Positions 24,952 to 37,062 of a stretch of 58,232 nucleotides of DNA are shown piece after piece. The position numbers and the translations under genes are program-made. Location of the stretch: assembly GCA_018696595.1 (NCBI GenBank), contig JABHQW010000006.1, forward strand, positions 1-58,232, in the 5' to 3' direction. This DNA is from Candidatus Woesearchaeota archaeon. GTDB taxonomy: Archaea; Nanobdellota; Nanobdellia; Woesearchaeales; GW2011-AR9. Each line of letters starts with the position of its first letter. The stretch's first letter is position 1. The notes beneath the pieces are model-generated. The model saw nothing but the letters and a program-made list of their open reading frames with translations, had not been told where the DNA came from and did no database searches.

Positions 24952-25076
24952 TGGGGCTGCGGGGATTTGAACCCCGAACACCTAGATTTCAATTACGACA
25001 TAATCATATCTTCAGTCTAGTGCTCTCTTTTCCTTGCCCTTTAAGAAAAAGACAATCCAGATTGAGCTACAGCCCC
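24952..25076 (-). tRNA. tRNA-Phe(GAA) with two introns (D-loop 25028-25056; anticodon 37/38 24988-25009), no encoded CCA
   Basis: Spliced: GGGGCTG TA GCTC AATCTGG|GA GAGC A CTAGA CTGAAG|A TCTAG GTGTT CGGGG TTCAAAT CCCCG CAGCCCC A. TATA at 25103-25110. Confidence 0.9.
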
Positions 25077-35950: not shown

Positions 35951-35996
35951 AAATAAAAGAATAAATTTAGAGTATATAATTGTTTAGAAAAAAAAG

Positions 35997-36113
35997 TGCG
36001 GGGGAGGAGATTTGAACTCCCGAACCCACTAAGAGACAGGATCTTAAGTCCTGCGCATTTGACCAGACTTTGCTCAAAGGATCTAAAAGCAATTGCTTAA
36101 AGGTAACCCCCGC
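35997..36113 (-). tRNA. tRNA-Leu(TAA) with a 31-nt non-canonical intron (36075-36105, position 8/9), no encoded CCA
   Basis: Spliced: GCGGGGG T|A GCA AAGTCTGGTCAAA TGC G CAGGA CTTAAGA TCCTG, long variable arm, GGGAG TTCAAAT CTCCT CCCCCGC A. Confidence 0.9.
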
Positions 36114-36190
36114 AGATCTGGTTATCGCAGGTGTCTCTTAACTTAGTAAGTTAAAAAGAAAATCTAACCCTTATTTATAAATTCTTCCTT

Positions 36191-36796
36191 TTATTTTCTT
36201 AGTTTTGGAAGTTTAGAAATGGGGTTGATTTCTTCTAAAAAACGAATTTGATCTTTTCGACTTAATTGTAACACATAATGAGGTTTTCTCTTTGGTCTAA
36301 TTATTGGACCTTGGATTGTATGTTTATAATTTAAGTTTGATAATAAGAAAGAAAGTTGATCAATTCCTTTTTTATTAGTAGAGAACATTCTTACAATGTT
36401 TATGGCAGTACCATCCCCATCAAAGAATCCTCTTAGGAAAAAAACTTTAATTTCTTTATTAGAATCAATTACTGAATTTGGAACCTGCCATTTTAAGTGT
36501 CCTAAAGGAGTCTGATTAATAATACTTTTAATAATAGCATGATTACCAATGTTAATTTTTCCATGTTTAGTAATTTTAAAAGTAAAACCAAATTCTTTAT
36601 TCAAAAGAGAAATGTAATGATTGGCTAAGTTGATATCTTTACTATAAAATTCAATTCGTTCTGATCTCTTATCTTTACGATAACGTTTTTTAAGTCCATT
36701 AATTTCCCAATAACTAGAATAAGAGATAATATGGCTACCTTCAGCACATAAAAGTCCCAATATCTCAGCAAATTCTTTACTTATTTTATTATTCAT
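36191..36796 (-). mobile_element. Free-standing double-motif LAGLIDADG (intein-type) homing endonuclease-like gene
   Basis: FAEILGLLCAEGS and FLRGFFDGDGT; no Hint or splicing residues; GAGGTGA SD. Confidence 0.85.
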
Positions 36797-37062
36797 TTAA
36801 GTCACCTCTTTGTTTCTACTCATTAAAACAAAGAGTTTTTCAAAAAAGAGTAAGTCTAGCGAAACCCATTAAATTTCTTCTTGGTTTCAGACAGAAAGAC
36901 AAAGATCTTTTTGGCGTCCTAAAAATGTTTTTTGTTCATTTTTATGATACCAAAATAATTTTATTAAGGGTTTTGCGTTAGCTCTTTTTCATTATCCTTA
37001 CAGAACTAATCATTAATAAATATTATCCAAACCTGTCGAGTGTGTCTAGTGGCTTTTAGAAT

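Follow-up and report, generated by a model that had tools for sequence, protein, structure and literature searches.

A predicted BHB intron between positions 8 and 9 of an archaeal tRNA-Leu(UAA) gene, with an antisense leader and a co-occurring LAGLIDADG gene

The tRNA-Leu(UAA) gene of a marine member of the Woesearchaeota (DPANN) carries an insert directly after its 5′ acceptor strand which, very likely, is a BHB intron spliced out from between U8 and A9; splicing is inferred, without RNA evidence. For the locus as a whole, we are fairly confident that the best explanation is an 8/9 BHB intron whose motif is presented by an antisense 5′ leader and which probably forms part of a mobile cassette. 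As a splicing substrate, the insert is an ordinary archaeal BHB intron of the EndA-spliced kind (splicing again being inferred) at an unusual site. Its interest comes from its context, namely a covarying antisense leader, a slide between positions 8/9 and 9/10 among relatives, and a strict association with a free-standing LAGLIDADG gene. The locus lies in a 58,232-nt stretch of DNA, here called the window. Its features, in order of transcription and all on the minus strand, are as follows.

36191..36796, minus: free-standing double-motif LAGLIDADG homing-endonuclease gene, 201 aa, with E19 and D128
36172..36181, minus: TATA-like box TTTATAAATA, 59-68 nt upstream of G1 (from sequence only)
36114..36137, minus: antisense 5′ leader (from folding, duplex energies and covariation; transcription inferred from the TATA-like box)
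36132-36137, minus: leader GAGACA, predicted by folding to pair with tRNA positions 42-47
36126-36131, minus: leader CCUGCG, predicted by folding to pair with tRNA positions 25-30
36116-36122, minus: leader ACCAGAU, predicted by folding to pair with D-loop G15-U20 (36068-36062)
35997..36113, minus: tRNA-Leu(UAA) gene, class II, discriminator A; 117 nt, 86 nt after splicing
36106..36113, minus: 5′ exon G1-U8, GCGGGGGU (from sequence layout and orthologues)
36108..36111, minus: central 4-bp helix, 5′ strand G3-G6, part of the acceptor stem in the cloverleaf (from register scoring)
36105..36107, minus: 5′ bulge G7-U8/U, predicted cut after U8 (from register scoring)
36075..36105, minus: 31-nt BHB intron between U8 and A9 (from register scoring and homologous inserts)
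36081-36104, minus: inner helix and AAGC/GCUU hairpin of the intron (from register scoring)
36077..36080, minus: central helix, 3′ strand CCUU, intron nt 26-29 (from register scoring)
36074..36076, minus: 3′ bulge U-G/A9, predicted cut before A9 (from register scoring)
36071..36073, minus: outer helix h, 3′ strand G10 C11 A12, with partners C2, G1 and U-1 (36112-36114)
35997..36074, minus: 3′ exon, A9 to discriminator A73 (from an Rfam match and orthologues)
35988..35995, minus: T-run 3′ of the discriminator, a likely terminator (read from the sequence)

The acceptor stem of the tRNA is formed by GCGGGGG on the 5′ side and CCCCCGC on the 3′ side. An anticodon arm of CAGGA-CUUAAGA-UCCUG, with the loop CUUAAGA giving the anticodon UAA, is followed by a long variable arm and a T arm of GGGAG-UUCAAAU-CUCCU; CCA is not encoded. 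Like many tRNA genes in DPANN genomes, this one escapes standard tRNA finders. ARAGORN, run with and without its intron mode, found no tRNA at the locus and reported none in the window. The Rfam tRNA model matched the gene only over model positions 9-63 (36074..36005, 30.6 bits), as expected from an insert directly after the 5′ acceptor strand. The host genome measures 1.19 Mb in 8 contigs, at 32% G+C and 97% completeness, and its seawater habitat is taken from DNA runs that match the locus. Just 16-18 of its tRNA genes are visible to Rfam, because many contain non-canonical introns; two other partial Rfam matches contain introns in the T-loop. Scans for acceptor and T-arm sequences proved too noisy for a genome-wide tRNA inventory and were dropped, and other introns near positions 7-10 are not excluded.

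By layout, 32 nt separate G7 (36107) from A9 (36074), one of which is U8, so the insert is 31 nt long, as the first-pass annotation had it. For BHB motifs, the cut falls after the second base of the bulge. In the 8/9 register, the outer helix forms three of three pairs (U-1:A12, G1:C11 and C2:G10), and the central helix, between G3-G6 and CCUU, is weak, with two G-C and two G-U pairs. The inner helix h′ comprises an A-U pair, a C.A mismatch, C-G and U-A, and continues into the AAGC/GCUU hairpin. In the allele of the type found in a related genome, G448, h′ is paired at four of four positions, with U-A where the window copy has the C.A mismatch. An hBHBh′ motif is defined by h and h′ helices with at least two Watson-Crick pairs each (PMC7714728). 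Helix h has three, one of them contributed by leader base -1, and two 3-nt bulges on opposite strands flank a 4-bp helix, as the motif demands. Register scoring thus upheld the annotation's proposal of a full BHB at 8/9, with the helices and bulges that it had named, and also its view that the 9/10 register pairs worse. At 9/10, one of three outer pairs forms, the central helix has one G-C and three G-U pairs, and no inner helix lies beside the bulge.

The annotation had further suggested that a mature U8-A9 would support 8/9 and U8-U9 would support 9/10. Run on the DNA of orthologues, this comparison gave U8-A9, within GGGGG-U-A-GCAAAG, in at least 17 uninterrupted genes among 60 related genomes, and splicing the window gene at 8/9 restores the same sequence. 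Since the uninterrupted orthologues have U8-A9, we infer U8-A9 for the mature tRNA here, and 8/9 is the only register that gives it; the product of 9/10 splicing in the window gene would be U8-U9. An intron at 9/10 in this gene, with U8-U9 in the mature tRNA, is highly improbable. The insert would be 31 nt long in either register, some relatives (class B, below) do use 9/10, and U9 is present in some archaeal tRNA-Leu. Against this stand the poor outer and central helices and the missing inner helix at 9/10, together with the fact that the uninterrupted orthologues, and both classes of interrupted gene when spliced in their best register, all yield U8-A9-G10.

Could the insert instead be retained, in a pseudogene or in a tRNA with an extra arm? 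No RNA run contains the locus to exclude this directly, and standard tRNA finders reject the gene. Such a reading is nevertheless scarcely tenable, as the gene at 36113..35997 is an essential one: it provides the sole UAA anticodon arm found in the 97%-complete assembly, and 59% of the Leu codons in the five ORFs of the window that were sampled are UUA. In addition, the exon sequences are conserved, strong conservation within the intron is confined to the bases that the BHB requires, and the genome encodes EndA. A spliced intron at 8/9 remains the preferred reading.

Homologous inserts in tRNA-Leu(UAA) occur in 20 of 113 genomes of the family. Eighteen were found by a search for the G7-G10 pattern and two, in genomes G500 and G443, by inspection; one pattern match was a false positive. 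Outside the family, we found homologous inserts in two genomes of other families in the order and on four further metagenome contigs. The interiors of the 20 orthologous inserts differ, with a pyrimidine tract (mostly CCUU) and two bases at the 3′ end being kept. Across relatives, CCUU is the best-conserved part of the intron, and its retention amid differing interiors argues that the BHB is more than a chance match.

The 20 genes scored fall into two classes. Class A, with 13 members including the window gene, has the 8/9 register (GGGGGU / ... CCUU-NG / AGCAAAG, with slashes at the intron boundaries), and class B, with seven, has the 9/10 register (GGGGGUA / ... CCYU-NG / GCAAAG). All three outer pairs form in 13 of 13 class A genes and all four central pairs in 11 of 13; in class B, the central helix is complete in seven of seven. 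The 4-bp helix of each class forms solely in its own register, and U8-A9-G10 results from both. Position 2 tracks the register: 12 of the 13 class A genes have C2, which pairs with G10, and five of the seven class B genes have U2, which pairs with A12. A slide by one base is possible because CCUU can pair with either G3-G6 or G4-G7 of the run G3-G7. On a tree of the adjoining endonuclease the two classes are interleaved, so that the slide must have occurred more than once. The relatives are not independent, so that all of these counts overstate the support.

Other introns also occur in tRNA-Leu(UAA) genes of the order (loci L025-L046 and L129-L172), in the D-loop, at a 24/25-like position, at 37/38 and at a T-loop position resembling 59/60, in many combinations. 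Close relatives differ in their sets of introns, which suggests fast gain and loss.

The predicted splicing motif is built from the 5′ strands of the acceptor and D stems and therefore competes with the cloverleaf. Folding agreed with the first-pass annotation that the pre-tRNA must refold, breaking both stems. In the unconstrained minimum free energy fold of the region, a helix between the leader and the D-loop is found together with both BHB helices, the outer of which it extends. With a 37-nt leader, the best strict-BHB fold has a predicted energy of -50.9 kcal/mol, against -41.6 for the best fold with an acceptor stem (37 °C model). With the leader trimmed to U-1, the order reverses, to -28.2 kcal/mol for the strict-BHB fold and -40.5 for the acceptor-stem fold. 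In these energy models, then, the splice-competent fold wins only if the leader is present. Judged by its position, the TATA-like box would give a leader of about 35 nt, and we infer that the leader is part of the transcript. A palindrome of 8-1-8 nt (TTAACTTA-C-TAAGTTAA, minus strand, 36139-36155) separates the TATA-like box from the antisense leader and would fall about the predicted transcription start.

Among 22 intron-bearing genes, the duplex between leader and D-arm has a mean energy of -12.3 kcal/mol, compared with -8.8 kcal/mol in nine family genes without the insert and -6.5 kcal/mol in eight genes from other families. In 19 of the 22, a leader:D-arm helix of 5-11 bp ends within about 3 nt of G1, and U-1 is found without exception in 21 intron-bearing genes. 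Pairing was scored by explicit pair counts; the consensus that RNAalifold derived from a MAFFT alignment had no meaning, since genes of different register and introns of varying length are not aligned correctly. With the register fixed, pairs form in 79% of all cells of the structure tested (71% for the leader helix alone), and sliding the partner lowers the paired cells to 26-40%. Compensatory changes between A-U and G-C are seen at three leader columns, two of which track D-loop positions 16 and 20; the third occurs in one sequence. The observed count of double changes was reached by none of 500 shuffles. Taken singly, the window gene has a leader duplex that does not differ significantly from shuffled sequences (z = -1.25, p = 0.11), and support for the leader comes from the group of genes rather than from this gene by itself.

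Our view is that the leader is probably required to present the motif, and hence that splicing precedes 5′ processing, though the leader RNA is itself inferred. Some family genes that lack both the insert and the endonuclease gene share part of the leader motif, so the leader may predate the intron. The predicted energies after splicing still strongly favour a leader-bound rod over the cloverleaf (-45.8 versus -31.6), which leaves the access of RNase P unexplained. We also considered the leader as a C/D-box guide and ruled this out, finding no box C or box D motifs by eye. A close parallel is in Nanoarchaeum equitans, where complementary leader and trailer sequences unite the halves of split tRNA genes and form the BHB (PMC3218864). 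As there, sequence outside the mature tRNA would pair so as to present a BHB to EndA. The pairing proposed here differs in acting in cis, between the leader and the D-loop and anticodon-stem flank of its own tRNA, and the gene is unsplit.

The genome provides the splicing endonuclease that an hBHBh′ intron needs. We found one EndA gene (one PF01974 match; contig C7:39420-40040, corresponding to L047:1474-2097, minus strand) for an alpha-type protein of 207 aa. Among solved structures, it is closest to the alpha subunit of N. equitans and the alpha4 EndA of M. jannaschii. Its alignment to the M. jannaschii enzyme is gapless, and it has no loop insert of the broad-specificity type. Y, H and K residues occupy the positions that we take to be those of the catalytic triad. 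A lysine-rich N-terminal extension of about 35 residues, absent from the M. jannaschii protein, might be an added RNA-binding element. Searches with PF01974 and an EndA protein query revealed no second (beta) subunit, although a very divergent one is not excluded. Enzymes of the alpha4 type need a strict hBHBh′ motif (PMC3239211), and in DPANN archaea alpha4-type EndA accompanies heavy disruption of tRNA genes (PMC5829648). An RNase P RNA gene is also present in the genome.

We propose a pathway in which the primary transcript would not form a cloverleaf. Instead, G3-G6 would pair with CCUU of the intron, and U-1, G1 and C2 with A12, C11 and G10, and leader pairing to the D-loop and to positions 25-30 and 42-47 would complete a long rod displaying a 3-4-3 BHB. 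The single alpha-type EndA would then cut after U8 and before A9, and an RNA ligase would join the exons. Finally, RNase P would remove the leader, and the tRNA could fold normally with U8-A9.

A second interrupted tRNA gene in the window, for tRNA-Phe(GAA) (24952-25076, minus strand; Rfam, 50.5 bits), contains two inserts, one of about 31 nt in the D-loop and one of 22 nt at or near 37/38. On visual inspection, no clean 3-4-3 motif is formed by the insert in the anticodon loop, where the 3′ segment from hairpin to stem has too few bases. The alpha4-like EndA may therefore also handle relaxed motifs.

The first-pass annotation had also suggested that 8/9 is uncommon among archaeal intron positions. 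The available part of a review of non-canonical sites lists 20/21, 22/23, 25/26, 29/30, 30/31, 45/46, 53/54, 56/57 and 59/60, terms an intron at 3/4 'an extreme case', and in that part names neither 8/9 nor 9/10 (PMC4090602). To this extent the suggestion stands; beyond that review it is unsettled. Position 8/9 is rare at best, and the intron is not of a new kind. It resembles other archaeal non-canonical BHB introns, such as those of multi-intron genes in the Thermoproteales, including the one at 3/4, and those at 53/54 and 59/60 in ARMAN-2, in being short and without an ORF. Like them, it is predicted to have two 3-nt bulges around a 4-bp helix, to be cut by EndA and to sit wherever a BHB can form (PMC3239211; PMC4090602, as far as available), and it occurs in a lineage rich in disrupted tRNA genes (PMC5829648). 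It differs in its location at the junction of the acceptor and D stems (8/9, sliding to 9/10), a site unnamed in the available portions of these texts. It differs further in drawing its motif from the 5′ acceptor strand, base -1 and the 5′ D-stem strand, with an antisense leader in addition, and in a host EndA that looks like a plain alpha4-type enzyme without a loop insert.

The LAGLIDADG gene lies 77 nt upstream of the tRNA gene on the same strand, and its product matches Pfam LAGLIDADG_3 (PF14528, E = 1.3e-13). Its two motifs, LGLLCAEGS (with E19) and FFDGDGT (with D128), are invariant in 10 orthologues, consistent with a two-motif monomer of about 200 aa. The nearest solved structure, by a weak match (E = 0.003), is I-DmoI; D128 aligns with the acidic residue of the second I-DmoI motif, presumably E117. 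The gene is under purifying selection (dN/dS 0.11-0.18), and from this ratio, about 0.15, and the retained catalytic residues we infer that a DNA-cutting function is maintained, in the absence of cleavage data. We rejected a single long intron containing the ORF, as no second copy of the 8-nt 5′ exon was found upstream of the gene.

Orthologues of the gene are present in 11 of the 113 family genomes, in 11 genera (nine intact genes and two remnants), in one genome of another family (G249), and seven times on metagenome contigs, four of these being new. At 16 of 16 distinct loci, the orthologue lies directly upstream of an intron-bearing tRNA-Leu(UAA). In a tblastn search of all tRNA-Leu loci fetched, matches were confined to loci with an 8/9-9/10 insert, and neither the 113 family genomes nor the metagenome contigs had an orthologue at an uninterrupted locus. 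Genomes G500 and G443, whose inserts the pattern search had missed, likewise have the gene upstream of an intron-bearing tRNA-Leu(UAA). Presence of the gene varies within genera, and about half of the intron-bearing genes (nine to ten) are without it. In three loci, of genomes G026, G500 and G249 (L138, L160 and L130), the LAGLIDADG frame continues through the leader and the 8-nt 5′ exon to a stop codon inside the intron or straddling its start. There, the tRNA must be co-transcribed with the LAGLIDADG gene, and the same bases would serve as codons for the protein C-terminus, as partner of the D-loop and as part of the tRNA.

A LAGLIDADG protein beside an intron might also serve as a maturase-like RNA helper for folding or splicing rather than as a DNA endonuclease. 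LAGLIDADG maturases exist for organellar group I introns, and an intron that needs so unusual a fold could call for one, in which case the co-occurrence would follow naturally. This is very unlikely in view of the two invariant catalytic acidic residues and of the half of the intron-bearing genes that lack the protein, which indicates that it is not required for splicing.

We lean instead, with somewhat better than balanced confidence, towards a reading in which intron, leader and upstream LAGLIDADG gene together form a mobile cassette; cleavage and protection are inferred from co-occurrence. An archaeal counterpart in enzyme type is I-DmoI, from a BHB intron in the Desulfurococcus 23S rRNA, where the enzyme is again a double-motif LAGLIDADG monomer of about 200 aa. 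DNA-level homing of archaeal rRNA BHB introns with a LAGLIDADG endonuclease is established. At our locus, the endonuclease gene instead stands outside the intron, upstream of an 8-nt 5′ exon, the host is a tRNA gene, the intron has only 31 nt, and the similarity to I-DmoI is, as noted, weak. The gene layout is that of collaborative homing in phages, where alleles without the intron are cut at its insertion site by a free-standing endonuclease, the genome that carries the intron is protected by it, and both elements are copied by repair (PMC6083498). A free-standing endonuclease gene adjoining an intron-containing gene, and always found with the intron, fits that arrangement in both position and co-occurrence. 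The phage system differs in that it involves a self-splicing group I intron, an Endo VII-type enzyme and a protein-coding gene, whereas here the intron is of the protein-spliced BHB type, the enzyme belongs to the LAGLIDADG family and the gene encodes a cellular tRNA, with cleavage and protection only inferred. In the literature searched, we found no description of a collaborative-homing pairing of an endonuclease with an archaeal tRNA intron.

By this model, the endonuclease would cut intron-less tRNA-Leu(UAA) DNA at the 8/9 junction, the intron would protect its own gene from the endonuclease, and repair would copy the cassette. A fuller version, on which our confidence is evenly divided, is a selfish cassette of three parts. 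In it, the endonuclease cuts the uninterrupted 8/9 site; the BHB intron destroys that site and is harmless, since EndA excises it; and the leader exposes the motif on the acceptor strand to a plain alpha4-type EndA.

Comparison of loci bears on whether the cassette moves. In genome G027, a site syntenic with the window locus is empty, with a DUF1003 gene, about 75 nt, an uninterrupted tRNA and then a transglutaminase-like gene, and neither a LAGLIDADG gene nor the leader motif. Genome G001, of the same genus as the window genome (locus L038), has a tRNA-Leu(UAA) with neither the 8/9 intron nor the LAGLIDADG gene. Its tRNA gene also lies between DUF1003 and transglutaminase-like genes, in inverted orientation, and is interrupted at 37/38 and in the T-loop by introns that are absent from the window gene. 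Between the window genome and G448, dS is 0.54 for the LAGLIDADG gene, compared with 1.68 for XPD and 1.52 for a MiaB-like gene. At about one third of the genome level, this value suggests that the cassette is younger than the split of the two genomes. A patchy distribution, low dS against G448 and the presence of remnants are together what a homing cycle calls for. The cassette was also present in DNA contigs from four of four seawater studies, together with a variant of about 91% identity that is similar to the G448 allele, and intron-less alleles were found there too, on contigs of other organisms. No joint between presence and absence within one strain was found in the contigs of these four studies, with short-sided joints (24 nt) being excluded from consideration. 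The upstream flanks of the cassette differ between genomes, and simple two-sided homologous repair cannot therefore explain every transfer.

The link between gene and intron could also reflect nothing more than common descent, with a single insertion, vertical inheritance and frequent loss, and with neither targeting of 8/9 nor mobility of the intron. We consider this possible but rather unlikely. All counts come from related genomes, the nine to ten intron-bearing genes without the endonuclease gene would be simple losses under such a history, and the differing upstream flanks and the lack of cleavage data leave room for it. In the comparison with genome G016, moreover, dS of the LAGLIDADG gene is 2.16, equal to that of housekeeping genes (2.1-2.2). 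Common descent accounts less well for 16 of 16 orthologues adjoining an intron-bearing gene and none an uninterrupted one, for the joint absence of intron and gene from G001 and the empty syntenic site in G027, for the reduced dS against G448, and for catalytic residues kept under a dN/dS near 0.15. A mobile cassette thus remains the reading that we favour.

A 20-nt element, CCACTAGACACACT(C/A)GACA, occurs in six copies in the genome, at 37034-37053 of the window (minus strand) and at C2:35104, C2:56262, C3:3318, C3:133802 and C3:151405. All six are followed, after about 15-20 nt, by a TATA-like box. In the window, the copy comes directly after the stop codon of DUF1003 and marks the left end of the region homologous to the G448 cassette. 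The element may be a binding site for a regulator or a promoter module.

The locus further illustrates how a tRNA gene may tolerate an intron where the acceptor stem must unfold. The leader seems to act as a built-in folding guide, and this implies a fixed order of processing, with splicing before 5′ trimming. At the level of the gene, how archaeal tRNA introns arrive at new sites "remains open" (bioRxiv 10.64898/2026.10.13.758758). Because LAGLIDADG gene and intron are strictly associated, experiments can test how a tRNA intron originates and spreads, and naturally occurring sites in the empty, filled and decayed state can be compared. If the cassette is indeed mobile, it would be, as far as we have found, the first collaborative homing outside phage group I introns and the first DNA-level route identified for the gain and spread of an archaeal tRNA intron. 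The locus is thus a testable candidate for a protein-spliced tRNA intron that travels with a conserved homing endonuclease gene, apparently active insofar as activity can be inferred.
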